Assembly: GCA_022703585.1 (NCBI GenBank)
Contig: JAKLDJ010000006.1
Coordinates: 5,696-69,695, forward strand
DNA from: Candidatus Omnitrophota bacterium
Lineage (GTDB): Bacteria; Omnitrophota; Gorgyraeia; Zapsychrales; JAKLDJ01
DNA length: 64,000 nucleotides
Direction of reading: 5' to 3'
Part shown: positions 1 through 17,745 of the stretch, in pieces
How positions within the stretch are numbered: position 1 is the first letter of the stretch
Layout: each line of letters begins with the position of its first letter
Translations under genes and position numbers: made by a program
Notes under the pieces: generated by a model
What the model saw: the letters and a program-made list of their open reading frames with translations, nothing else
Database searches by the model: none
Told to the model about the DNA's origin: nothing

Positions 1-291
1 AAAGATATTCTCGCTTTCGTCAAACCTGATACTTTCTTTCGTTGCCGGTCTTAGAGTAGCCTTGCTTGGGATGAGCACATTTTGGATAGCTCCACTTCTC
101 CCGGCCCAAGAGAAGTTGAATTTTTCAGAAGCGGTGTCGATATGTTCACCCAGAGCCAAGCGCATCTTATCGATGTTGACCTTGCCTTCGGATATCGCTT
201 CCGGAAGAATCGCCTTGAGCTTTCCAAGCAACTCTGCCTTGATATCTGTGGATTCCCTGACAGCCTTTTGGGTTTTATTTTTCTTTGCCAT
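1..291 (-). CDS. Adenine-specific DNA methyltransferase, N-terminal part (type III Mod / type IIG-like); gene continues off the left edge
   Basis: Hand translation of the minus strand from ATG at 291-289 gives MAKKNKTQKAVRESTDIKAELLGKLKAILPEAISEGKVNIDKMRLALGEHIDTASEKFNFSWAGRSGAIQNVLIPSKATLRPATKESIRFDESENIF. The FxFxWxG(K/R) ... PSKxTL(K/R)P ... SENxF run matches the conserved N-terminus of N6-adenine RM methylases (Mod / PglX-like). It is absent from the ORF track because it is truncated by the window edge. Confidence 0.55.
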   Translation of the reverse strand, partial: MAKKNKTQKAVRESTDIKAELLGKLKAILPEAISEGKVNIDKMRLALGEHIDTASEKFNFSWAGRSGAIQNVLIPSKATLRPATKESIRFDESENIF

Positions 292-322
292 GTTTAGCCT
301 CTTTTTATGTTATGCAAATTGG

Positions 323-664
323 TCATAATTTCTTTGCTAATTTCTTGTATGATGCGTGATTTAGTGCGCCCCCGCAAGACGTTTCTTGAGCCTTTGTTAT
401 TAAAATTGACATGCGTCTATTCATCTTTAAGCTCTTTGGAGTAATTTTAATGCTTTTTATTGGTTCTCTTTTGCCTCTCTTGTGGTCGTTGATTTTTCGG
501 AGCAACGCTTGAAGCTCATCTTTGGCATATAGCCGATAATTATTAAAGGGATGCCGGTATGATTTGAGTTTGCCAGAGGAATCCCATCTCCTGAGCGTCA
601 TTTCAGAGACCCCCAGAAGTTCAGAGGCTTCTTTGATTGTTATATAATCGTCTATTTTCTTCAT
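323..664 (-). CDS. MerR/excisionase(Xis)-family helix-turn-helix DNA-binding protein
   Basis: ORF 323-682. The true ATG is at 664 (MKKIDDYITIKEASELLGVSEMTLRRWDSSGKL...YRLYAKDELQALL); the first in-frame start is a TTG. It has an N-terminal MerR-type HTH followed by a basic tail, and lies directly upstream of the methylase gene on the same strand. Confidence 0.6.
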   Translation of the reverse strand: MKKIDDYITIKEASELLGVSEMTLRRWDSSGKLKSYRHPFNNYRLYAKDELQALLRKINDHKRGKREPIKSIKITPKSLKMNRRMSILITKAQETSCGGALNHASYKKLAKKL

Positions 665-973
665 GTATATAACCTTTAACAAGATTATACACAGAAAAAA
701 ATAGAAATCAACACGAAGCGTCCTATCGTCTGTTCGTTATATTAAAATATCTTCATCCAAAACCATGGCGTTATCAGAAATAAAATTTCGCCTGAATCAA
801 GTGACCAGTCCCTGACCTAAGGCAGGACAAGAGTCGTTTATCATATTTTATATAGTGCTTAGCTTAGCAAGTCTGCCTCTCTCGCAGACTCTTTCGCTTT
901 CTCTTTGCTTACTCTTTATTAAAACCTTTGCGTTAGAGAAGCGAACGCTTATTTTAAGGAAAGAATATATTTA

Positions 974-1020
974 GGCATAGCAGAAGCGTAGGGGATAGCC
1001 TCAGCTATGCCTAATATATA
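974..1020 (-). terminator. Hairpin just downstream of the 1023-1364 gene (possible intrinsic terminator)
   Basis: Inverted repeat ttaggcatagc...gctatgcctaa followed by an A/T-rich run on the minus strand. Confidence 0.35.
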
Positions 1021-1022
1021 GT

Positions 1023-1364
1023 CTATTCTTGGATAAGCCGAGTGAAGTATTTAGTTTGGTTGCCAACGCCGGTTTTCTTGATGCCGACCATTGAACCGAA
1101 CGGATAACGTGCCATTTGCTCGGCCAAAATTCGACTGCCCCTGTCCCAACTCTGCCGGACGCCATTCGATTCAAAGATATAGCGCAGGCATTCACTTTTC
1201 CCACCGTCAAAACGATTTGGGATTTTCTCGACACCAAGAAATTTAACAATTTTCTCGGTATCGTCTGGAAGGGTGAAGAACTTTGAGTTTTTATTTATAA
1301 AATCATCGAAAATATCGCTACCGACACTCATAAATCCTCCTTGCGTTTTCAAGACGTTTTTCAT
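1023..1364 (-). CDS. Hypothetical small protein (gene D of the four-gene small-protein operon)
   Basis: ORF of 113 aa. The ATG at 1364 overlaps the stop of the upstream SpoVG-like gene (ATGA), and an alternative ATG at 1331 is preceded by AAGGAGG. I recognise no family. Confidence 0.5.
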   Translation of the reverse strand: MKNVLKTQGGFMSVGSDIFDDFINKNSKFFTLPDDTEKIVKFLGVEKIPNRFDGGKSECLRYIFESNGVRQSWDRGSRILAEQMARYPFGSMVGIKKTGVGNQTKYFTRLIQE

Positions 1365-1684
1365 TCATCCAGATAAGGCACGTAGTAGGTGCTTTCTGGG
1401 CCTCTCTTTGAGCCTTTGGCGATTTTGTCGATTTTATCGACTACTGCATTTGTTAGGTCAAGGGCTGTCTCTTTGTCGATAGGACAGAATGACTCGACCA
1501 TCAGGCCATGTGGTAATCTGATGACCGGATAGACTAATCGAAAACCTGACCCGTCAAGGCGTGTGAACACGCCTACTCCCTGAACTTTGAACCTGCCATC
1601 GATTACAAAGCTCGTGACGCCTACACGCCCCTTTTCATTTGGGGCGAGAGGGAAGAACTTGACCTCTTTCACTTCCACTTTCAT
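1361..1684 (-). CDS. SpoVG-like nucleic-acid-binding protein
   Basis: ATG at 1684 is preceded by GGAGGTGA at a 6-nt spacing; the ORF-track start at 1690 is a TTG. MKVEVKEVKFFPLAPNEKGRVGVTSFVIDGRFKVQGVGVFTRLDGSGFRLVYP resembles the SpoVG fold pattern (V..V..V...G...A.A.V.LD..F.V..I.V...G.F...P). Confidence 0.45.
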   Translation of the reverse strand: MKVEVKEVKFFPLAPNEKGRVGVTSFVIDGRFKVQGVGVFTRLDGSGFRLVYPVIRLPHGLMVESFCPIDKETALDLTNAVVDKIDKIAKGSKRGPESTYYVPYLDE

Positions 1685-1838
1685 TCTCAATCACCTCCTC
1701 AAACTCATTCCATTTGCGTAATAACCCGAAAAAGCGGCGCAAGCCAGAGCAGATTTCCGCTATTTCTTGAGGACTTAGCGGTCTGCCGTAGGCTTGCGCC
1801 CATTCCTCCTTCAGGTTATTTTTAGAATTTTTAGCCAT
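1635..1838 (-). CDS. Hypothetical small protein (gene B), uncertain
   Basis: ATG at 1838 (MAKNSKNNLKEEWAQAYGRPLSPQEIAEICSGLRRFFGLLRKWNEFEE...). It overlaps the SpoVG-like start by about 50 nt and has a weak RBS, so it may be spurious. Confidence 0.25.
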   Translation of the reverse strand: MAKNSKNNLKEEWAQAYGRPLSPQEIAEICSGLRRFFGLLRKWNEFEEVIENESGSERGQVLPSRPK

Positions 1839-1900
1839 TAAGAAACGTCGTATTGGACACCTTTGGTCACCCTCGCAGAAATAAGATAACCTAATAAATT

Positions 1901-2188
1901 TCAATCGGTTAATTTCTGCGGGTCGGATTTGAGATACTTTTCATACTTTGCCACAAAGTTCTCCATTTCATCCGTGGTAAACTGTAAAACAATAAAGGCC
2001 ATAAAGAGTAGTGAGTGGCCTTTGAGTGCCCAATACGGACGGCTTTGAGGCAGAAAACGAAACACCATGTGAAGCGTTTCTTCAACAAGATTCTGGCGCT
2101 CGGCAGGTATTATGAAATTAACCTGTGCAGGATTCTCGCCAGCATTTTGGAGAAGTTCTGATTTGATTCTTCTGTATAGTTCGCTCAT
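1901..2188 (-). CDS. Hypothetical protein (gene A, first gene of the small-protein operon)
   Basis: ATG at 2188 is preceded by AAAGGAGGTG at a 7-nt spacing (MSELYRRIKSELLQNAGENPAQVNFIIPAERQNLVEETL...). I recognise no family. Confidence 0.5.
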   Translation of the reverse strand: MSELYRRIKSELLQNAGENPAQVNFIIPAERQNLVEETLHMVFRFLPQSRPYWALKGHSLLFMAFIVLQFTTDEMENFVAKYEKYLKSDPQKLTD

Positions 2189-2239
2189 ATTTTTCACCTC
2201 CTTTCTGGGGAAAAACCTGTTTATCATTACTGCAGGCAA

Positions 2240-2505
2240 TTCTTCCCTTGCACATATTTATAGCAAGAAGGTTATAAATCTATCACTTGACGCAAAATAG
2301 TTTTAATTGTCTGGAAATAAATAACTTATAAAGCATGAATTTTATGTTATTCAAAACTGATGTATAAGGTTTGTGAGGATTTTCTGGCCTAGAGGGGGTG
2401 ATAAGACCTTAAAACTGGCTTAGGAGGGTATTTTTATTGTTTATATAGCTTAAAAGCGTATAATATTAATTATTAAGTTGATTAAACTCTATCTATAACT
2501 ATGTC
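2240..2505. promoter_or_regulatory. AT-rich divergent promoter region between the minus-strand small-protein operon and the plus-strand nuclease/Schlafen module
   Basis: A 266-nt non-coding, very AT-rich stretch lying between divergently oriented gene starts (2188 minus, 2506 plus). Confidence 0.5.
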
Positions 2506-3324
2506 ATGAAAATGAAAAGTAAGATTTTAAGAAAACTTATCGACGTTGAAATTAGATTAGGTTTCCTTCACATCCCCGCCGCAGGAATCGATTTGTTCCC
2601 CGAGAAAAACACCAAAATAAACGCCCTTGTAGATGGGGAATCCCGTCAATTAACTTACAATGCCACACATAGAAGAATCTTTGGCCTTACAAAATGGTAT
2701 TCGGATTGTCATGTAAAGGTTGGCGATGAGATTGAAATCGAAAAAGCAGGCGAGGAATACAAGCTAATATTTAATGCCGGTAAACTCGCTGAAACGCCCT
2801 TAAAGGAAGCCGAGACCTTGATTGATATTTCCGGCTTATCATCTCAGGCAAAGGGCAATATCGTTGAGGAACGGGTCAAGGAGCTTATTCTTTTGCAGGG
2901 ACAAGGGCTTTTGAGCGTTTATAGGCCGGTGACGGATACTGAGGGCATCGATTTGATTGTGCTGAAAAGCGGGATGTTTCAGCCGTTATTCTTGCAGATA
3001 AAAGGGCGTTTTAATGTTCAGAAAACCGGATACTTTTTAATGGATATCAGCAAGAAGACATTTACGGTGCATCATTCATATTTTGTAGTAGGCGCTTACT
3101 TTAATCCTCGTGAAATGGAAATCGATGAGCATTTGTTATTTGTTCCGAGTGAAGAAGTCGTCAAAGCTCCCATCGTGAAGTCGAATGTGGGGGAACGATA
3201 CCGGATTGCGAATCATCTCAATATGGATTCCAAAGGCCGTTGGGCCCCGCATTTGATTAAGAAATCCGATTTGGCAAGTAAGTTGTTGGAAAAGTTTGAG
3301 GAAATAGGGAAATATATTAAATAG
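2506..3324 (+). CDS. Restriction-endonuclease-like protein: N-terminal B3/EcoRII-N-like DNA-binding domain fused to an Mrr-cat-like PD-(D/E)xK nuclease domain
   Basis: N-terminal half: IRLGFLHIPAAGIDLFPEKNTKINALVDGESRQLTYNATHRRIFGLTKWYSDCHVKVGDEIEIEK fits the B3-like pseudobarrel pattern (grLxIPk..a...fP.....i.l.D..G..w.f.y......r.vLt.GW..Fv....l..GD.v.F). C-terminal half: VTDTEGIDLIVLKSG...LFLQIKGRF resembles the Mrr_cat motif GIDxI...D...(Q/E)xK(R). Confidence 0.55.
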   Translation: MKMKSKILRKLIDVEIRLGFLHIPAAGIDLFPEKNTKINALVDGESRQLTYNATHRRIFGLTKWYSDCHVKVGDEIEIEKAGEEYKLIFNAGKLAETPLKEAETLIDISGLSSQAKGNIVEERVKELILLQGQGLLSVYRPVTDTEGIDLIVLKSGMFQPLFLQIKGRFNVQKTGYFLMDISKKTFTVHHSYFVVGAYFNPREMEIDEHLLFVPSEEVVKAPIVKSNVGERYRIANHLNMDSKGRWAPHLIKKSDLASKLLEKFEEIGKYIK

Positions 3325-3335
3325 GAAATTACTCA

Positions 3336-5057
3336 ATGATTGATTCAGTTGATTCGATATTAAAAGAAATAGAGAACACTTCTTTAGTTGAGCACCGGCA
3401 TCCGAATATTGAATTGAAATCCAGTTGGGATGTCGATTACGGAAGAAAAGTCTGTGGTCTTGCAAACAAAATCGGCTTCTCAAATGCTTGGCTTGTGATA
3501 GGCATGAAGGATGATGGAATTTTGGTAGGAAATAACGAGGCATGGGCTAAAAATTGTGAACAAGTAGTATCTCAACATGCCAACCAATTTCTGAATCCAA
3601 TTCAGGCGATTAAACAAATATCTTGTCATCAAATAAATCAATCTTGGATAGTCGTTATTCATGTTCAGCCGCCCGGTGCTGTTACATACTGGCAAGGCAT
3701 TCCTTACAAAGCTTCTGGCACAACTTTTGCCGCCATGATACCCGAAGAAATCATGCAGTTGACTGTATCTTTGCCCGGATTAGAAGATTTTTCCGCACAG
3801 GAATGGAAAGGGAGATGCGAAGCTTCTTTAGTCGCAGGTTTTGCAGAAACTGTCAGCACGAAACGCTCTGAGGCGCAATTTGTGGATTTATCGAAGAGAA
3901 CCGCCGATGATGTATTAACTCGTTTAGCAATTGTTGATAAAAATGTCGTTCGTATCTTGTTTGGAGATTTCAAATTTCGGATTGTTTATTACAATGATTC
4001 CAATGAGCCAGTTGAAAATTCTTCACAGCAAGGATTAATTCGCTTGCTGAGTAGCGAATTTATGCAATCAATTCAACGGTGGGGACTTAAAAATATTCAA
4101 ACAGAAAGTGGGGCGGAGATAACTTTAGAGTCTTACCCATCTAAAGCACTGCGGGAAGCTTTGGCCAACACGGTTGCGCATTGCGCTTATTTTGAAAGGC
4201 AAGGAGAGGTGGTTGTAGAAGTGTATCCCGCAAAGTTATCCATAAGTAATCTTTGTTTGCCTGAATCAGCGCATTTTGCTAATAAATGGTTTTCAAGAAG
4301 CAGAAATACCGTTAATCGTTTGTTGATGGAAACCTTGAGACTCGGCGGTTATGTTGATGAGTTAGGGAGAGGCAAGAATCTTATTTTCTGTGAAAGTATT
4401 AAGGCGGGATTAAAACCTCCCATTGTTGAAATTGAAAAAGCCGGACAATACAGCCGATGGAGATTGCAATTATTTGGAGCTTCCCGTGACCCAATCCAAT
4501 TAAAACTACTTCAACGGATTAAAGATTTATATAAGGACGAGTATAAAGCAATGGTTGCTTATGCTCTTGTTCTTTGGAGCAATTTACCTGTTTCAAGAAT
4601 TTCTCAATTTATCGATGGTGAATCAAGAGCATATTTTGAAGAAATTCTTCAAGATATTGATGGCCCGGTATTCTTTTATCAGAAAGAAGATAAACTTATC
4701 CTACATCGTTGGGTTAGGGTCTTGATGGAAGAAGGGAAGGATGCAAAGTCATTTACACTTGCGGAGGAAGAAGGGTTGAGGAATTTTGCTTATGAAATGT
4801 GCACAAAATATGAGCACGGATATATTACTCCTAAGGAATTGAGACGATTAGCGCATTTAGGCGAAAGCAACTCTGAGCAACAATTAAGCTCTGAATTGTT
4901 AAGTAAATGGCGGAAAGAAGGACATGTAGAATTTCTGAGGCGGGGGAAATACCGATTCAAAGAGCCGGTAAAACCACCGGAGGCTTGGTCAGCTCTCCTT
5001 GATAGGTTATTAAAAGATTCAACAAGTAGTGCATTAGGAAATACGGCCAATGAATAA
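3336..5057 (+). CDS. Schlafen-like AlbA_2 domain + HATPase_c_4 (RecG-C-terminal-like) + C-terminal winged-helix-like extension protein
   Basis: N-terminus: EHRHPNIELKSSWDV...VCGLANKIGFSNAWLVIGMKDDGILVG...VVIHVQPPGAVTYWQGIPYKASGTTFAAMIPEEIMQL matches the AlbA_2 (PF04326-type) pattern. Middle: ALREALANTVAHCAYFERQGEVVVEVYPAKLSISN...RNTVNRLLMETLRLGGYVDELGRGKNLIFCESIKAGLKPPIVE matches the HATPase_c_4 (PF13749-type) pattern. It starts 12 bp after the nuclease gene, so the two are probably one operon. Confidence 0.7.
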   Translation: MIDSVDSILKEIENTSLVEHRHPNIELKSSWDVDYGRKVCGLANKIGFSNAWLVIGMKDDGILVGNNEAWAKNCEQVVSQHANQFLNPIQAIKQISCHQINQSWIVVIHVQPPGAVTYWQGIPYKASGTTFAAMIPEEIMQLTVSLPGLEDFSAQEWKGRCEASLVAGFAETVSTKRSEAQFVDLSKRTADDVLTRLAIVDKNVVRILFGDFKFRIVYYNDSNEPVENSSQQGLIRLLSSEFMQSIQRWGLKNIQTESGAEITLESYPSKALREALANTVAHCAYFERQGEVVVEVYPAKLSISNLCLPESAHFANKWFSRSRNTVNRLLMETLRLGGYVDELGRGKNLIFCESIKAGLKPPIVEIEKAGQYSRWRLQLFGASRDPIQLKLLQRIKDLYKDEYKAMVAYALVLWSNLPVSRISQFIDGESRAYFEEILQDIDGPVFFYQKEDKLILHRWVRVLMEEGKDAKSFTLAEEEGLRNFAYEMCTKYEHGYITPKELRRLAHLGESNSEQQLSSELLSKWRKEGHVEFLRRGKYRFKEPVKPPEAWSALLDRLLKDSTSSALGNTANE

Positions 5058-5304
5058 GCAAGAAGCTGTTTACGCAATTGAACTGTTTTATGAAAAAGTC
5101 GATGAAGATTTAGCCTAAGTCCAAAGTAGGCCGAGGGTATCTTGAACGGCTTGACTCAAACCGTTCAAGGTGAGACGACTCGTCAGACCTTAAATTGAAA
5201 TTGCAAGCGACTCAACAAGCGAATCCGTAACATAGGCTTCTTCCGATACACAATAAGCCTTAAACTGCTCTAAGAAGTTCCTGAAATCGTCCGCTTGGGG
5301 GAGT

Positions 5305-5350
5305 ATTTAATAAAAAGGCCGCCTTGAAAGGCGGCCTTTTTATTAAATAG
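5305..5350. terminator. Bidirectional intrinsic terminator hairpin
   Basis: tatttaataaaaaGGCCGCCttgaaaGGCGGCCtttttattaaata: a GC stem flanked by an A-tract and a T-tract. Confidence 0.6.
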
Positions 5351-5460
5351 TTCCTCTGCGTTAAGAGGTACCCAGTACCCGAAGGGTGCGTTCGCCGGGA
5401 GCGAAGCGACCAGCACTTGTTACCCGGAGGGTAGAACAAGTGAGCCCTCGCGGGGGAGTT

Positions 5461-5506
5461 AATATTTAAAAGGGGCCACCCAAAGGGTGGCCCCTTTTAA
5501 ATATAA
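5461..5506. terminator. Bidirectional intrinsic terminator hairpin (end of repeat unit A)
   Basis: aaaaGGGGCCACCCaaaGGGTGGCCCCtttt. Confidence 0.55.
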
Positions 5507-5625
5507 TCCTTACGAGACGAAGAACCTGTCCGAAGGACGGGTTCGCTAGCGATCACGCCAAGGGCGGGGGAGCAGTCCCGAGGCGCAAAGCGACGAGGGA
5601 AGCCCTCGCGGGGGAGTCAAGTGAA

Positions 5626-5664
5626 ATAACAAGGGCCGCCTTTTAAGGCGGCCCTTGTTTGTAA
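5626..5664 (-). terminator. Intrinsic terminator downstream of the minus-strand 5684-6049 gene (end of repeat unit B)
   Basis: aacaaGGGCCGCCttttaaGGCGGCCCttgtt. Confidence 0.55.
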
Positions 5665-6049: not shown

Positions 6050-6204
6050 ATCTCCCTCCTTTTTAAAATAATTTAACAGAAATAAAAATTACCGTCAAGG
6101 AGTATTCTGTTATTTAAGCGAGAAGAGAATTTCTATTTTAAAGGCATCGTGTTATAATACATTCATGTTTTTGGTTAAGAAGAATAATTAAAAAGGAGAA
6201 CGAT

Positions 6205-6594
6205 ATGTCTAGAAAGATTGTTGCATTTGTCGGATTCGCTTTTCTGCTGCTTACTATTTACGGCTGTGTTGCGATTGTCGCCGGTGCGGTGGGGGGAGTA
6301 GGGACATCGGTGTGGCTTTCGGGCAAGTTGACCCAGGAATTTAATACTCCGTACGAGAAAACGATTAAGGCGGCCAGGTCGGCGCTGCAGTCGCTCAAAC
6401 TGAATATTACTAAAGAAACCAAGGACGATACGGTGGCCCAATTGCGCAGTGAGGATTCGAGCGGGAAGGACATCTGGGTCGATATCCGCAAGATTACCGA
6501 GACTTCGACCAGGGTGGAAGTCCGCGTGGGGGCAGTTAATTCGGACAAAGACGCGGCAACGACCATCCTTCAGAGAATCCAGAAGTATTTATAA
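6205..6594 (+). CDS. DUF3568-like lipoprotein
   Basis: AAAGGAGAA RBS. Signal peptide plus a lipobox (LLTIYGC). 129 aa with the overall DUF3568 pattern. A TATAAT -10 element sits at about 6154-6159. Confidence 0.55.
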   Translation: MSRKIVAFVGFAFLLLTIYGCVAIVAGAVGGVGTSVWLSGKLTQEFNTPYEKTIKAARSALQSLKLNITKETKDDTVAQLRSEDSSGKDIWVDIRKITETSTRVEVRVGAVNSDKDAATTILQRIQKYL

Positions 6595-6669
6595 GATAGC
6601 TCATATTGGTTTTTGCGGAAACGTGGTAAAGGTTTTTGTCCAGGCAAGCGTATAAACCGGAGATTAAAA

Positions 6670-6846
6670 ATGGTTGATATCGAGGCTTTGCGTTTGGCGT
6701 TATCGAAAGAGCAGGACGCCATAGAGATGTACCAAAAATTATTGCTGGAGCATCCTAATCTGGCGGATTTGATTAATTTCTTGATTACGGAAGAGCAGAA
6801 ACACAAGAAGCTGATAGAGAGAAAGATTACGGATTTAAGCCGATAG
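6670..6846 (+). CDS. Small ferritin-like / rubrerythrin-family protein
   Basis: ATG at 6670 (MVDIEALRLALSKEQDAIEMYQKLLLEHPNLADLINFLITEEQKHKKLIERKI): a short helical ferritin-like segment. A terminator follows at 6880-6918. Confidence 0.4.
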   Translation: MVDIEALRLALSKEQDAIEMYQKLLLEHPNLADLINFLITEEQKHKKLIERKITDLSR

Positions 6847-6879
6847 CAGGAAGCGAGCGAACGAAACGGTTCTGATTTG

Positions 6880-6918
6880 AAAAGGGGGCGCCCCGAAGGG
6901 GCGCCCCCTTTTTTCTCC
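6880..6918 (+). terminator. Intrinsic terminator
   Basis: GGGGGCGCCCCgaaGGGGCGCCCCCttttttct. Confidence 0.65.
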
Positions 6919-7032
6919 CCGCAGGGTTTTGAAGCGCATAATCTGCCGTAAAATACATTGCAAAAGATTTTTGATGAGATAGAATAAAAAAAACGCAACG
7001 GTTACCAAGTCTTCGTATCTAACCAAAGGAGC

Positions 7033-7368
7033 ATGTCCATGGCACAGGAGACCTTTATTGAGAAACAAGAGGAAAGTATCTCCATCCATATCTTTGCCGT
7101 ATCGGCTGCGCTGGTGGGGGTATGCCTGACCGTCATAGGTATTTTCAATATTGTTACGTCTCTTAAAAGAATGGAGACTTTTCTGGATGAGATGACTGCC
7201 GTCGATGCTGTTCTTTTTATGCTGGCCTGTATTTTTTCGTATATGGCGATTCGAACCAGGGAACGGCAGCCTAGGCTCCGTTTGGAAAAGATCGCAGACA
7301 GCGTGTTTTTGTCTGCGCTTTTTTTAATGGCTACAACCTGTGTGTTAATTGTTCTCCGATTGATCTAA
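7033..7368 (+). CDS. Hypothetical small membrane protein upstream of cstA
   Basis: 111 aa with 3-4 predicted hydrophobic helices. Ends 5 bp before the cstA start. Confidence 0.4.
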   Translation: MSMAQETFIEKQEESISIHIFAVSAALVGVCLTVIGIFNIVTSLKRMETFLDEMTAVDAVLFMLACIFSYMAIRTRERQPRLRLEKIADSVFLSALFLMATTCVLIVLRLI

Positions 7369-7372
7369 ACTC

Positions 7373-9169
7373 ATGCACGCCTTAACCCTGCTTACTGTCA
7401 GCTTGCTCGTATTTGCTCTAGCCTACCGGTTTTACGCGAAATTCATTATTACAAAAGTCCTTGTTTTTGACGACAAAAGACCGACGCCTGCCCATACCTT
7501 GCGCGACGGGCAGGATTATCACCCTACCAATAAATATGTTCTTTTTGGCCATCATTTTGCGGCAATTTCCGGGGCGGGGCCATTAGTCGGCCCGGTCCTG
7601 GCGGCGCAATTCGGATTTCTCCCCGGGTTTTTATGGATATTGATCGGCGCGGTCCTGGGAGGGGCGGTGCACGACATGGTGATTCTTTTTGCCTCGGTGA
7701 GGACTAAGGGGCTTTCATTAACCAGGCTGGCCCGAAAAAGTATTGGGCCGACGGCAGGGTTGGTGACAGGGATAGCCATCCTTTTTATCATTATTACGGC
7801 CTTGGCTGGGCTTGCCTTGGTCGTGGTCAATGCCCTTAATGAAAGTGCCTGGGCAACTTTTACCATCGTGATGACGATCCCGGCGGCTTTCTTGGTTGCC
7901 TTGTATATGTATAAACTACGCCCGGGAAAAATTATCGAGGCCTCGCTGCTGGGGATGGTTGTTGTTATGGCGGGGGTTGTATTCGGTGAGCCGTTATCAA
8001 GGTCGGGATTTGGGCAGTATTTCTTGCTTTCTAAACCCGCGCTTTCTGTTGCCTTGCCGGTGTACGGCTGTATTGCCTCAATCCTGCCGGTGTGGCTTTT
8101 GCTGTGCCCGCGCGATTATTTAAGTTCCTACATGAAAATCGGGACCATCGGTCTTTTAGCGGTTGGAATAGTCATTGTTAACCCTCAGCTTAAAATGCCG
8201 GCGGTGACAAGCTTCATACACGGCGGCGGGCCGATTATTCCGGGTAAGGTTTGGCCGTTTGTGTGCATAACCATTGCCTGCGGGGCGATTAGCGGCTTTC
8301 ACAGCTTGATCAGCTCGGGGACAACTCCCAAGATGATTAGCCGGGAATCGGAAATACGGATGATCGGTTTCGGGGCGATGCTTGTCGAGGCGGTTGTTTC
8401 TATCATGGCGTTGATTGCGGCTACCGTGCTTTTGCCGGGGGATTATTTTGCTATTAATGTGCCGGTGGAGGTATTTCATAAATTGGGATTAAGCACGGTG
8501 CATCTTGCGGAAATCGAAAAAATGACAGGCGAGGCCTTGGCCGGGCGCACCGGAGGCGCTGTTTCGTTGGCCGCGGGGATGTCGGTTATTTTATCGTCAA
8601 TCCCGGGAATGAAGCATCTCATGGGATATTGGTATCATTTTGCAATCATGTTTGAGGCGCTGTTTATTTTGACAACGGTGGATACCGGCACGCGGGTGGC
8701 CCGTTATATCCTTCAAGAACTTGCCAAGCTGGCAAGGCCCCGCTGGCAAGGGGCAAGCAGTTTGCCCGGGGTTATCACAACCAGCATTTTAATCAGTTTT
8801 CTCTGGGGATATTTAGTCTATAACGGAGATATTTCCACTATCTGGCCGATGTTTGGGGTGGCCAACCAGCTTTTGGCTACTCTGGCGCTATTAGTGGGGA
8901 CAATGTATATCCTCAAGCATTCCAAGCGATGGAGCTATGGATTGATCACATTTTTGCCGGCGTTATTTATGTTTGCAACAACCGTCGTTGCGGGAATATT
9001 AAATATTACGGGAAATTACTTACCCAAACACACCTTCCAGGGGAATCTCAATGCGGCCCTTTCGGGAATCATGATTATTCTCGTGGTTATCGTATTTCTT
9101 GAAACCTTAAAAAAGATGTATAGGCTGCGGATAACAGGCCTAGGCGTACCGAAAATAAAAGCAGCGTAA
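7373..9169 (+). CDS. cstA: Carbon starvation protein A (peptide transporter CstA family)
   Basis: FGHHFAAISGAGPLVGPVLAAQFGFLPGFLWILIGAVLGGAVHDMVILFASVR and the overall 598-aa polytopic membrane protein are typical of CstA. Confidence 0.9.
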   Translation: MHALTLLTVSLLVFALAYRFYAKFIITKVLVFDDKRPTPAHTLRDGQDYHPTNKYVLFGHHFAAISGAGPLVGPVLAAQFGFLPGFLWILIGAVLGGAVHDMVILFASVRTKGLSLTRLARKSIGPTAGLVTGIAILFIIITALAGLALVVVNALNESAWATFTIVMTIPAAFLVALYMYKLRPGKIIEASLLGMVVVMAGVVFGEPLSRSGFGQYFLLSKPALSVALPVYGCIASILPVWLLLCPRDYLSSYMKIGTIGLLAVGIVIVNPQLKMPAVTSFIHGGGPIIPGKVWPFVCITIACGAISGFHSLISSGTTPKMISRESEIRMIGFGAMLVEAVVSIMALIAATVLLPGDYFAINVPVEVFHKLGLSTVHLAEIEKMTGEALAGRTGGAVSLAAGMSVILSSIPGMKHLMGYWYHFAIMFEALFILTTVDTGTRVARYILQELAKLARPRWQGASSLPGVITTSILISFLWGYLVYNGDISTIWPMFGVANQLLATLALLVGTMYILKHSKRWSYGLITFLPALFMFATTVVAGILNITGNYLPKHTFQGNLNAALSGIMIILVVIVFLETLKKMYRLRITGLGVPKIKAA

Positions 9170-10388: not shown

Positions 10389-10880
10389 ATGGTTATCAAG
10401 GAGAAGTTACAAAAAGCTATCAATAAGCAAATCAACGCGGAGCTGTATTCGTCGTATCTGTATCTGTCCATGGCGGCGTATTTTGAATCAATGAATTTTA
10501 AAGGGTTTGCCCACTGGCTTCAGCTGCAGGCTAACGAGGAGAACCAGCACGCGATGAAATTCTACGCCTACGTTATCGAGCGGGGCGGAAAAGTCGTTTT
10601 GACCGAAATCGCGGCCCCTAAAGCCGAATGGAAATCACCTTTGGCTGCTTTTGAAGAGGTTTATGCCCACGAAATGAAGGTAACTTCACTGATCAACGAT
10701 TTAATGAAATTAGCCAAGGATGACAATGATTTTGCCACCGAATCACTTCTCAAGTGGTATGTCGATGAGCAGGTGGAAGAAGAAGCTAATGCGCTTTCAA
10801 TCGTCGAGAAACTAAAACTTATTAAGGATTCGAATAACGGTTTATTTATGTTGGACCACGAGCTGGGAGGGCGGAAGTAG
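10389..10880 (+). CDS. ftnA: Non-heme ferritin
   Basis: INAELYSSYLYLSMAAYFE...GFAHWLQLQANEENQHAMKFYAYV...LKWYVDEQVEEE: the canonical ferritin di-iron residues. AAAGGAGGG RBS. Confidence 0.85.
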   Translation: MVIKEKLQKAINKQINAELYSSYLYLSMAAYFESMNFKGFAHWLQLQANEENQHAMKFYAYVIERGGKVVLTEIAAPKAEWKSPLAAFEEVYAHEMKVTSLINDLMKLAKDDNDFATESLLKWYVDEQVEEEANALSIVEKLKLIKDSNNGLFMLDHELGGRK

Positions 10881-10920
10881 ATCGCGCCGATTTTTGTCAA
10901 AGGCATAGATTGTCTTTTTA

Positions 10921-10953
10921 AGGGGCCCCGTTGTCACGGGGCCCCTTTGTTTA
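10921..10953 (+). terminator. Intrinsic terminator after the ferritin gene
   Basis: GGGGCCCCGttgtcaCGGGGCCCCtttgttt. Confidence 0.65.
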
Positions 10954-11071
10954 ATCATGATTATTTTAAGAAGCTGTCCTTTGTTTTCCGTTGTTGTGAT
11001 ATAATACGTCGTTTTAGATAATAAGCACCAGTCTTTTTGAGGCAATTCAACAAACCCAATACCGGACAATA

Positions 11072-12490
11072 ATGGCTAGAATACTGCTGATACGTACCAG
11101 AAGCGAGAAATACGAAAAGGCCTATGGCGCACCGCCTTTAGGGCTTTTATATCTTGGCGCTGTTTTGCGGCAGAATCATGCGCATCAGGTCAAGATCTTG
11201 GATATGCGGGCGGATTTTCTTGCTGTTGCCGACGCGTCTAAAGAGTTTGTGTCGTTTCAGCCGGATATTGTCGGTATCAGCGGTTTTACCCTGGAAGTGA
11301 ACATGCTGCACCAGGTGGCCGCGGCCATCAAAAGGGAAAGCCCGGGTTGCCCGATTGTAGTCGGCGGGCCGCATGCCAATGCGTGTTCGCAAGAACTCCT
11401 GGATGATTTCCATATCAATTATGTTGTCTTAGGCGAGGGCGAGAAGACCCTTCCCGACTTGATCGAAGCGGTTGTTTTAAAAACCAAGGATGTTAATGCC
11501 GTCAGAGGAATTGTTTTTAAGAAAGACGGGAAGATTGTGCGTACAGGGCCCCGAGAACCCGTTTCAAATCTTGACGAACTCCCCTTTCCCGGCTGGGACC
11601 TGATCGACGTGGAAAAGTATTATGCATTACCGCGTTTTATGCCCTTTACGCCGGATGGCGGAACGCCCTATATGCCGATTATGACTTCGCGGGGCTGTCC
11701 TTACAGCTGTACCTATTGCCATAATATTTTGGGCAAACAATTTAGAGCCAGGTCTGCGGAGAATGTTTTTGCGGAAATTGAGGCGCTTTATCAGCGGTAT
11801 GGTATCACGGATTTTGAGTTTACGGATGATTGTTTCAACCTGGACAAAAAGCGAGTCCTTGCGATTTGCGAGCTTATTATTAAGTCGGGGGTAAAGATGA
11901 AACTGTCTTTCCCGAACGGCTTAAGAGGCGATGTCTTGGATGAGGAGATTTTAGGTAAATTACGCGATGCCGGAACGCGGCTGATTTGCCTGGCGCCCGA
12001 AACAGGTTCAAAACGATTGCAGAAGCTTATTAAGAAGAACATGGACCTGGAAAAACTGCAGCGGATGATTTCTGCGGCCGTTAAACTGGGGATTCATGTG
12101 CACGGATTTTTTATGCTGGGTTTTCCGACGGAGACGAAAAGCGATTTAAAAGAGACCTTAAGATTTATTGGGCGGACCAAGTTACATACTGCGGACTTTT
12201 TTATTGTCAATTTATTTCCCGATACCGAGATGTATCGCGCAGCCAAAGCAGCGGGAAAAAATGTCCCGGAACGGTTCGATGATATCGATTACCATGATAC
12301 GAATTTTAACATCAGTGATGTCTCGAATAAGGAGCTTATCGCGATCCAGAAGAAATTTTTTATGGCGTTCTACTTTGATCCCCGCAGGATATGGCGTATT
12401 TTGTTCAGCCCGGTTATTCAGAAGAGATTTTTGATTTATTACGCGGTTATTTTCTTAAGGCGGGTTATTTTAAGGCGACGGGAAAGCTAG
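11072..12490 (+). CDS. B12-binding domain radical SAM protein
   Basis: N-terminal B12-binding-like region (PPLGLLYLGAVL...) and the radical SAM CxxxCxxC motif in TSRGCPYSCTYCHN. Confidence 0.85.
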   Translation: MARILLIRTRSEKYEKAYGAPPLGLLYLGAVLRQNHAHQVKILDMRADFLAVADASKEFVSFQPDIVGISGFTLEVNMLHQVAAAIKRESPGCPIVVGGPHANACSQELLDDFHINYVVLGEGEKTLPDLIEAVVLKTKDVNAVRGIVFKKDGKIVRTGPREPVSNLDELPFPGWDLIDVEKYYALPRFMPFTPDGGTPYMPIMTSRGCPYSCTYCHNILGKQFRARSAENVFAEIEALYQRYGITDFEFTDDCFNLDKKRVLAICELIIKSGVKMKLSFPNGLRGDVLDEEILGKLRDAGTRLICLAPETGSKRLQKLIKKNMDLEKLQRMISAAVKLGIHVHGFFMLGFPTETKSDLKETLRFIGRTKLHTADFFIVNLFPDTEMYRAAKAAGKNVPERFDDIDYHDTNFNISDVSNKELIAIQKKFFMAFYFDPRRIWRILFSPVIQKRFLIYYAVIFLRRVILRRRES

Positions 12491-17459: not shown

Positions 17460-17745
17460 TAATCGATTTTGATACGTTCGACGGCGTCCGAACCCGCCTT
17501 AAGGGGTGGGGTTCGGACGCCGCTCAGTATCAACCCTGAGCAAACCCCGGGCTTTAGTCCGGGGAGCGTCGAATGGGTTGATTTCTGTGCCCTATAATTT
17601 ACAGAAATCAAATGAGAGCGGGGGATCCAGGAAATACGATCAATTAAGATCTTGGGGCGAATATGAAAATTAGGGCCCAACAGCCCGAGCCCGACAGCTA
17701 ACCCCGTCAGCCTAGTGTTGAGAGAGCAAGCCAAAGAAATCGCTC
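17460..17745 (+). ncRNA. Highly structured intergenic leader / candidate cis-regulatory RNA upstream of the amino-acid permease gene
   Basis: Nested inverted repeats: gacggcgtccgaaccc/gggttcggacgccg (17479-17522), tcaaccc...gggttga (17530-17590), ccccggg/ccgggg, atttctgt/acagaaat, and a weak hairpin plus T-run at 17719-17760. Confidence 0.3.

Follow-up and report, generated by a model that had tools for sequence, protein, structure and literature searches.

Type IIE restriction enzymes such as EcoRII and UbaLAI carry an N-terminal B3-like effector domain, followed by a PD-(D/E)xK nuclease domain (PMC5766183, PMC2770665). Three papers of 2026 describe proteins in which a Schlafen domain is combined with a GHKL or minimal histidine kinase domain and a winged helix-turn-helix (wHTH) domain (PMC13056530, bioRxiv 10.64898/2026.05.29.728809, PMC12839542), and the combination of Schlafen and GHKL ATPase has been named the 'Schlatpase' supradomain (bioRxiv 10.64898/2026.05.29.728809). 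In the literature, the Schlafen–GHKL–wHTH proteins are the commonest prokaryotic Schlafen class and are often encoded beside type I restriction-modification (RM) or BREX loci, and related Schlafen–GHKL modules have been shown to be ATP-dependent tRNases. PD-(D/E)xK endoDNases and Schlafen RNases are both reported next to BREX (PMC12839542). Here we describe two neighbouring genes of these kinds in a stretch of 64,000 nucleotides (nt) from a Candidatus Omnitrophota bacterium (contig JAKLDJ010000006.1, positions 5,696 to 69,695), hereafter the window. Gene 1 encodes a B3-like pseudobarrel joined to a predicted PD-(D/E)xK nuclease domain, and gene 2 encodes a Schlafen–GHKL–winged-helix protein (Table 1).

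An earlier, sequence-only reading of the window regarded the two genes as a candidate defence module in which one protein serves as sensor or regulator and the other as effector, and named conserved adjacency of their homologues as the test of that module. We find no conserved pairing of genes 1 and 2; elsewhere, each occurs separately as cargo of RM defence islands. We propose that they are separate single-gene nucleic-acid-targeting defence candidates, which are neighbours by chance in a recombinase-borne island that spans about 11 kb beside dnaX-recR. We put the probability of this reading at about 0.68.

Results

The two gene families do not co-occur in the loci compared

Searches of a large protein collection return 267 full-length homologues for gene 1 and 258 for gene 2. 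Among the matches listed, E-values reach about 1e-73 and 1e-157 or better, respectively. Because each has hundreds of full-length homologues, both are real genes. Each protein also has an exact counterpart (100% identity) in a Candidatus Omnitrophota metagenome-assembled genome (MAG), where it is labelled 'hypothetical protein'. The genes lie on the same strand, as described before, and are separated by 11 nt rather than 12. Both peptide motifs that the sequence-only reading quoted for gene 1 are present in its translation.

To compare gene neighbourhoods, we use 80 metagenome loci with relatives of gene 2, 51 of which have at least 900 nt upstream, and 40 genome loci with relatives of gene 1 together with further Pfam-labelled contigs (48 loci with sequence, and one place known from records only). 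No relative of gene 1 is detected in any of the 80 gene-2-family loci by tblastn or hmmsearch, each at E<=10. Conversely, none of the 48 gene-1 loci with sequence has a gene-2-family protein by tblastn, family hidden Markov model or phmmer, and none is on record at the remaining place. The tblastn search missed a canonical Schlafen protein at one locus (L012), and the neighbours are rechecked with Pfam and phmmer on all six-frame open reading frames (ORFs). The two families are thus never adjacent in either sample, and the proposed nuclease–Schlafen module with its division into sensor and effector fails its own test.

The genes around the gene-2 relatives are hypervariable, and none of them recurs as a partner. 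The two closest relatives (69% and 53% identity) have neighbours other than gene 1, the latter lying between DUF1330 and Fic genes. In addition, PADLOC has no model for gene 1 or gene 2.

Gene 1 combines a B3-like pseudobarrel with a predicted nuclease domain

The AlphaFold model of gene 1 (pLDDT 80) consists of a beta-rich N-terminal domain and an alpha/beta C-terminal domain. In the model, the former has the seven-stranded open pseudobarrel fold of plant B3, EcoRII-N and BfiI-C, and the latter has the alpha/beta core fold of restriction endonucleases. In an alignment of 31 homologues (47–73% identity), residues E121, D144, D149, Q164, and K166 are invariant, and a second block of conserved residues, G19, F20, N52, R57, G60, and L61, is located near the N-terminus. 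E121, D149, Q164, and K166 are candidate catalytic residues, judged from this conservation.

Gene 1 has no significant match in Pfam, NCBIfam, PADLOC, PHROGs, or the plasmid and phage collections, and no sequence match among PDB chains by phmmer or by profile; its class is assigned by fold comparison only. The sole match to a nuclease family is to PDDEXK_5, at E=0.066 and 13.7 bits against a threshold of 26.1, and relatives of gene 1 match PDDEXK_5 too. The Pfam B3 model does not match at E<=0.1, so that the kinship is at the level of the fold only. The Mrr_cat family (PF04471), to which the nuclease domain had been likened, gives no match either and is rejected, the best structural neighbours being I-Ssp6803I and Hjc. 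The proposed B3 plus PD-(D/E)xK architecture is therefore retained on the basis of fold and invariant residues, and its Mrr_cat label is replaced by an I-Ssp6803I/Hjc-like one.

An exhaustive profile search with the nuclease domain finds 527 representatives at 50% identity clustering, in bacteria and archaea. The domain also occurs on its own (about 160 amino acids, aa) and in tandem (about 340–360 aa), forms that are encoded at loci L031–L040, and in eight of the ten tested relatives of about 250–275 aa an N-terminal HARE-HTH domain (PF05066) takes the place of B3. HARE-HTH has been proposed to be a reader of DNA modification (PMC11037411). Such a modular pattern of reader and nuclease is typical of restriction enzymes. 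B3 itself has no known role in the reading of modifications. Gene 1 and its relatives form a new family of a known kind, which is unannotated and for which Pfam, NCBIfam, and PADLOC have no model.

One locus (L013) has a 163-aa protein (10830–11321, plus strand) with its own weak match to PDDEXK_5 (E=0.008), encoded 16 nt after the gene-1 relative at the end of a complete hsdM-hsdS-hsdR-ygjP operon. Possibly, this protein is a further copy of the nuclease domain that lacks B3.

Relatives of gene 1 usually terminate RM operons

Relatives of gene 1 are usually located at the 3' end of type I, and sometimes type III or type II, RM operons. Among the full-length-homologue loci with at least 6 kb of upstream sequence, 13 of 18 have hsdM/hsdS/hsdR upstream, on the same strand in 12. 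A YgjP metallopeptidase gene is often located between hsdR and the nuclease gene, with gaps from -13 to about 70 nt. Other loci have, upstream, an N6_N4 methylase with a UvrD/PDDEXK_1 gene, an MmeI-like methylase with a DEAD/MZB helicase, or AAA_13/SMC-like or KAP ATPases. In accordance, RM genes of type I, III, or II lie upstream at eight of nine places on independent Pfam-annotated contigs: type I RM genes at L129, L130, L133, and the P0013 place (HsdM/HsdS), a type III Res gene at L132, and methylases with or without HinfI at L127, L128, and L131.

The downstream genes are variable and include HamA (Hachiman), AbiV, a TIR protein, RhuM, DUF6361, a NOV_C/Sacsin protein, and a Cas4-like protein, as well as N4/N6 and C5 methylases and a transposase. 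Such a context marks a gene at the close of RM operons within defence islands, not one half of a fixed pair. At one locus (L128, 11200–14057, minus strand), a ThsB-type TIR gene and a cluster of QueC, Ogg-HhH, and TGT-like genes adjoin the gene-1 relative. The cluster recalls the 7-deazaguanine DNA-modification (Dpd-like) systems.

Gene 2 is a divergent Schlafen–GHKL–winged-helix protein

The N-terminal domain of gene 2 matches Pfam SLFN_AlbA_2 above threshold. HATPase_c_4 is matched below threshold (20.8 bits against 26), and many members of the family carry PF13749. A match to AbiEi_4 is weak and likewise sub-threshold. Further matches are to SLFN11-N (10.1), the AlbA_2 domain of SAMD9 (9.9), SLFN5 (9.2), the ATP-binding domains of anti-sigma factors and histidine kinases (8–9.7), and winged-helix domains (about 8.5). 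Taken together, Pfam, the PF13749 of the family, and the fold matches support the architecture of AlbA_2, HATPase_c_4/GHKL, and winged-helix tail that the sequence-only reading assigned to gene 2.

Residues E19, E26, and K28 are invariant across 36 family members and form the motif E19-x6-E26-x-K28, in which E26-L-K28 is on the first beta-strand, as in the canonical 'lEfK'. Also invariant in these members are E274, N278, and a DELGRGK segment. E274 and N278 correspond to E314 and N318 of the Schlafen–GHKL–Argonaute RzAgo, which are ligands of the ATP gamma-phosphate and Mg. The published catalytic motif of pSlfn proteins is Ex4(E/D)xK (PMC13056530), and the canonical spacing is present in the Schlafen proteins encoded near the gene-1 relatives at L012 and L131. 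From the conserved residues, gene 2 is likely, not certain, to be catalytically competent. The statement that no named system is recognized is outdated for gene 2, which is a divergent member of the class described in 2026 (pSlfn-HisKinase-HTH, 'Schlatpase', BREX-linked; PMC13056530, bioRxiv 10.64898/2026.05.29.728809, PMC12839542).

The two genes lie on an island with a serine recombinase and a type III RM system

An extended contig (L125/L126) matches the window exactly (window position = locus position - 6665) and continues it to the left by 6.7 kb, where Mod, Res, and a large serine recombinase are encoded on the minus strand. The RM methylase noticed earlier is the N-terminus of the N6_N4_Mtase gene, which is complete in the extended contig. 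Res (876 aa) has ResIII/DEAD/RE_endonuc matches and makes up a type III RM system with Mod. The recombinase (637 aa) matches a PHROG integrase at E=1e-70. The excisionase-type gene next to Mod, previously called Xis/MerR, matches Pfam MerR (3e-11), Pfam HTH_17 (7e-10), NCBIfam 'excise' (1.6e-8), PADLOC mad1 (3e-14), and a PHROG excisionase. The island comprises, over about 11 kb, the large serine recombinase, Res and Mod, the Xis-like HTH gene, small ORFs, gene 1, and gene 2, and is located beside dnaX-recR in a Candidatus Omnitrophota genome. Its setting, with a type III RM system and a serine recombinase beside the two genes, bears out the description as a defence island.

The GC content of positions 1–5057 is 0.405, compared with 0.463 for the remainder of the window, a difference of about 3 standard deviations (5-kb windows, mean 0.459, standard deviation 0.017), in agreement with the low-GC island of the sequence-only reading. 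The divergent AT-rich promoter of that reading is confirmed as an AT-rich region, but a scan of positions 2240–2505 for the sigma-70 consensus does not find a promoter on the plus strand.

For the small ORFs upstream of gene 1, searches of Pfam, NCBIfam, PADLOC, and PHROGs give only a weak SpoVG-like match (1361..1690, E=0.005), and the ORFs have no homologue in any related locus. Being, in addition, on the opposite strand, they are rejected as parts of a module. To the right of gene 2, hairpins or terminators are followed by housekeeping-type genes. The spacer there contains perfect or near-perfect inverted repeats of 27 nt (5299–5354) and 20 nt (5462–5504), a 20-nt direct repeat AGCCCTCGCGGGGGAGT(T/C)AA (5443–5462 and 5601–5620), and a terminator-like hairpin on the minus strand (5628–5659). 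The palindromes and the direct repeat resemble REP-like elements or bidirectional terminators. A convincing pair of att-type direct repeats is not found at the island ends, and the window has no tRNA gene as an integration site. The sole Rfam match in the window is a c-di-AMP riboswitch (RF00379) at 17590–17729 on the plus strand (56.6 bits, E=2e-10).

Table 1. Coordinates of features at the locus and at other loci with a Schlafen-domain gene downstream of a gene-1 relative
Feature	Position	Strand	Size	Remarks
Type III RM Mod	1..291	-	first 97 codons; whole gene 629 aa	N6_N4_Mtase; cut by window edge
MerR/HTH_17 excisionase-type DNA-binding protein	323..682	-	113 aa in source contig call	ATG at 664 in source contig call
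Small genes (three to four)	1023..2239	-	about 89-113 aa each	divergent from gene 1
AT-rich divergent intergenic region	2240..2505			GC 0.289; presumed promoter region of both divergent units
Gene 1	2506..3324	+	272 aa	B3-like pseudobarrel, linker, PD-(D/E)xK nuclease domain (fold prediction)
Gene 1, B3-like pseudobarrel	2506-2781	+		residues about 1-92
Gene 1, PD-(D/E)xK nuclease domain	2842-3321	+		residues about 113-272
Gene 2	3336..5057	+	573 aa	Schlafen/AlbA_2, middle region, GHKL (HATPase_c_4), C-terminal winged-helix tail
Gene 2, Schlafen/AlbA_2 domain		+		residues about 1-135
Gene 2, GHKL ATP-binding domain		+		residues about 265-380
Gene 2, winged-helix tail		+		residues about 386-566
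Hairpin-rich spacer closing the island	5299..5659
L012, canonical AlbA_2-HATPase_c_4-HTH_24			444 aa	gap 36 nt
L021, HATPase_c_4-HTH_24 fragment				same cluster as L012 protein; second gene, after RlaP gene
L131, GmrSD_N(DUF262)-Schlafen fusion	6162-7940	+	592 aa	canonical ETARYECK motif; 352 nt after 67%-identical gene-1 relative

The extended contig has two versions (L125 and L126), both of which occur in several samples. From position 971 to the right, their sequences agree completely (100% identity). Over positions 1–971, about 5.7–6.7 kb upstream of window position 1, they diverge, inside the 3' end of the recombinase gene. In one version, dnaX-recR is present and the recombinase ORF is shortened to 501 aa; the other has the full 637-aa gene and other flanking DNA. 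Possible causes of the divergence are a rearrangement by the recombinase, a second insertion, and a chimeric assembly.

The same layout, with an RM methylase, a Xis-like HTH gene, a recombinase or integrase, small ORFs, and a divergent nuclease gene, is found at two close relatives of gene 1 (L127 and the P0013 place), in both cases without a Schlafen gene. At a further locus, from another metagenome (L134, 1–5813), a 62%-identical relative of gene 1 likewise lies a few kb downstream of dnaX-recR (compare L125, 1–691) and is followed after 1 nt by a TIR-domain gene. The site downstream of recR may be a recurrent hotspot of defence islands in this lineage.

Discussion

Several observations weigh against our reading of the two genes as separate defence candidates. 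Their spacing of 11 nt on one strand suggests an operon here, and they are probably co-transcribed in this genome. Three of about 47 other loci (L012, L021, and L131) have a Schlafen-domain gene of another architecture at most two genes downstream of the gene-1 relative, and these loci and the window are scattered within the close clade (at least 62% identity) of a rough neighbour-joining tree of the nuclease, which is more than a single inherited accident. Catalysis by gene 1 is predicted from the model and the conserved motifs, because the protein has no significant sequence match to a curated nuclease family or a solved structure. The motif spacing in the gene-2 family, Ex6ExK, departs from the published Ex4(E/D)xK, and no protection against phage was seen for the HisKinase-type Schlafens that were tested in E. 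coli (PMC13056530). The recurrence of Schlafen genes could mean that the clade of B3 nucleases works with an interchangeable downstream Schlafen RNase in a looser module, as a two-layer combination of DNase and RNase or as a sensor/effector pair. Counting the window, a Schlafen-domain gene occupies downstream position +1 or +2 relative to gene 1 or a relative with at least 67% identity at four loci, which are not monophyletic in the tree and show three architectures (long Slfn-GHKL-wH, canonical Slfn-GHKL-HTH_24, and DUF262-Slfn), and phmmer on six-frame ORFs finds no Schlafen match elsewhere in the flanks of the 48 loci with sequence. One of these architectures, that of the L131 fusion, is shared with EcoSlfn7, which has been shown to defend against T7 (PMC13056530). 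However, about 44 of the 47 other gene-1 loci have no Schlafen gene, the nuclease is absent from all 80 gene-2-family loci, and three unrelated architectures as partners argue against a specific protein complex. The estimate of positional enrichment is weak (p about 0.04 from a rough count), two of the three supporting contigs being short or truncated. Both gene types are independently reported or observed to gather at RM/BREX loci, which predicts occasional adjacency. Since Schlafen–GHKL–wHTH genes accumulate at type I RM/BREX loci, co-residence there is the simplest explanation of the recurrence. We therefore regard the recurrence as a weak sign, most simply explained by a shared island preference, and the looser module as unlikely.

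Two alternatives concern one gene at a time. Gene 1 could be the nuclease of a classical methylase-protected type II/IIE system, with the type III Mod, 2.2 kb off and on the other strand, as its protector. Its domain order is that of EcoRII and UbaLAI, and a methyltransferase is found within a few kb at most gene-1 loci; a small N6_N4 methylase gene follows the gene-1 relative by 4 nt at L023, a related one is near it at L015, and a C5 methylase is next at L003. However, the methylases found alongside fall into unrelated classes (type I HsdM with variable HsdS, type III Mod, N4/N6, C5, and MmeI-like), and L130 and L134 either have no dedicated methylase apart from the type I system or lack one altogether. 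A dedicated cognate methyltransferase that consistently adjoins the gene-1 relatives is not found; classes and positions vary, and some loci have none of their own. The B3 domain, in contrast, is highly conserved, with 45–73% identity among aligned full-length homologues from MAGs labelled as different phyla and with N52, R57, and G60 invariant. Because the B3 domain is fixed and the methylases vary in class and specificity, a classical methylase-protected role is quite improbable. Gene 2, in turn, could be a DNA-binding transcription regulator rather than a nuclease, perhaps one that controls gene 1 or other genes of the island. This would agree with its C-terminal winged-helix domains, its weak antitoxin-type AbiEi_4 match, the public label 'predicted HTH transcriptional regulator' of some relatives, and the non-canonical spacing of its motif. 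It would also agree with the surroundings of the 53%-identical relative, which are polysaccharide-synthesis, Fic, and other non-RM genes, with the 30% of pSlfn genes that do not lie near defence genes, and with the lack of defence by the HisKinase-type Schlafens tested in E. coli (PMC13056530). On the other hand, the invariance of E19, E26, K28, and the GHKL ATP-binding residues in 36 diverse members is hard to explain for a mere repressor, the relatives of gene 2 have no conserved neighbouring target gene, and related Schlafen–GHKL modules are ATP-dependent tRNases. A purely regulatory role of gene 2 is thus very improbable.

In the preferred reading, that of two separate defence candidates, the B3-type pseudobarrel of gene 1 would bind duplex DNA and the PD-(D/E)xK domain (E121/D149/Q164-x-K166) would cut it. 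Most likely, gene 1 would serve as a restriction nuclease of an auxiliary, solitary, or type IV/IIE-like kind, with no methylase dedicated to it. A type IV (modification-dependent) role may apply, by analogy, given that the family has no dedicated methylase and that its nuclease domain is elsewhere fused to HARE-HTH, a proposed reader. Gene 2 would be a 'Schlatpase-HTH' protein with its winged-helix tail as a sensing or DNA-binding part, and, by analogy with its class, may oligomerize in an ATP-dependent manner, cleave tRNA, and defend against phage. We observe the folds, the conserved residues, the gene contexts, and the lack of a conserved pairing; the substrates, triggers, and anti-phage activity of both proteins are inferred.

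Had the pairing been conserved, the two genes would have stood out as a new two-gene nuclease–Schlafen defence system. The family of B3 nucleases is a candidate new solitary or auxiliary restriction enzyme, because of its placement at the end of type I RM operons, the alternative fusion to HARE-HTH, and the lack of an existing model, and it is a candidate addition to defence-annotation libraries. A more far-reaching and doubtful idea is that this family of about 270 aa is an unrecognized accessory restriction nuclease of the ATP-dependent (type I/III) RM systems, for instance a 'fourth component' that is guided by B3 or senses modification, and that in one clade it cooperates with interchangeable downstream Schlafen RNases. 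If true, it would form a layered defence cassette of DNase and tRNase. The Ex6ExK Schlafen–GHKL–winged-helix subfamily could help to define the role of stand-alone 'Schlatpase-HTH' proteins.

Comparison with known systems

Gene 1 resembles the type IIE enzymes EcoRII and UbaLAI, with their N-terminal B3-like effector domain, in its domain logic. In contrast to these enzymes, it is much smaller (272 aa), has no detectable sequence similarity to them, and is located at the end of type I/III RM operons without a dedicated cognate methylase. The catalytic domain is closest to I-Ssp6803I/Hjc, unlike the EcoRII-C/MvaI type. Compared with I-Ssp6803I, PDDEXK_5, and archaeal Hjc, gene 1 is not intron-encoded and has an added B3 domain, its PDDEXK_5 scores are all under the Pfam gathering threshold, and its context is RM islands instead of introns or recombination genes.

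Gene 2 shares with the pSlfn-HisKinase-HTH or 'Schlatpase' proteins and with 3lmm (DIP2311) the combination of AlbA_2, PF13749 GHKL, and C-terminal winged-helix domains. It also shares with the class the acidic/lysine triad, the E/N and DxGxG-type motifs of GHKL, and the RM-adjacent location. Its subfamily is longer (about 560–590 aa) than the pSlfn-HisKinase class (about 440–490 aa) and has an extended winged-helix tail. Gene 2 is only about 14% identical to 3lmm, has Ex6ExK where the class has Ex4(E/D)xK, and has a weak AbiEi_4 match of its own. We know of no demonstrated function in the gene-2 subfamily or in the stand-alone HisKinase-HTH class.

Auxiliary or backup nucleases embedded in RM or BREX loci provide a precedent for the locus as a whole. 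The PrrC anticodon nuclease, for example, is located inside the EcoprrI type I locus. Here the RM genes are on the opposite strand and separated from genes 1 and 2 by the HTH gene and the small ORFs. As in such loci, a second nuclease is found at a methylation-based restriction locus, and DNase-type and Schlafen RNase-type genes are located by a type III RM system.

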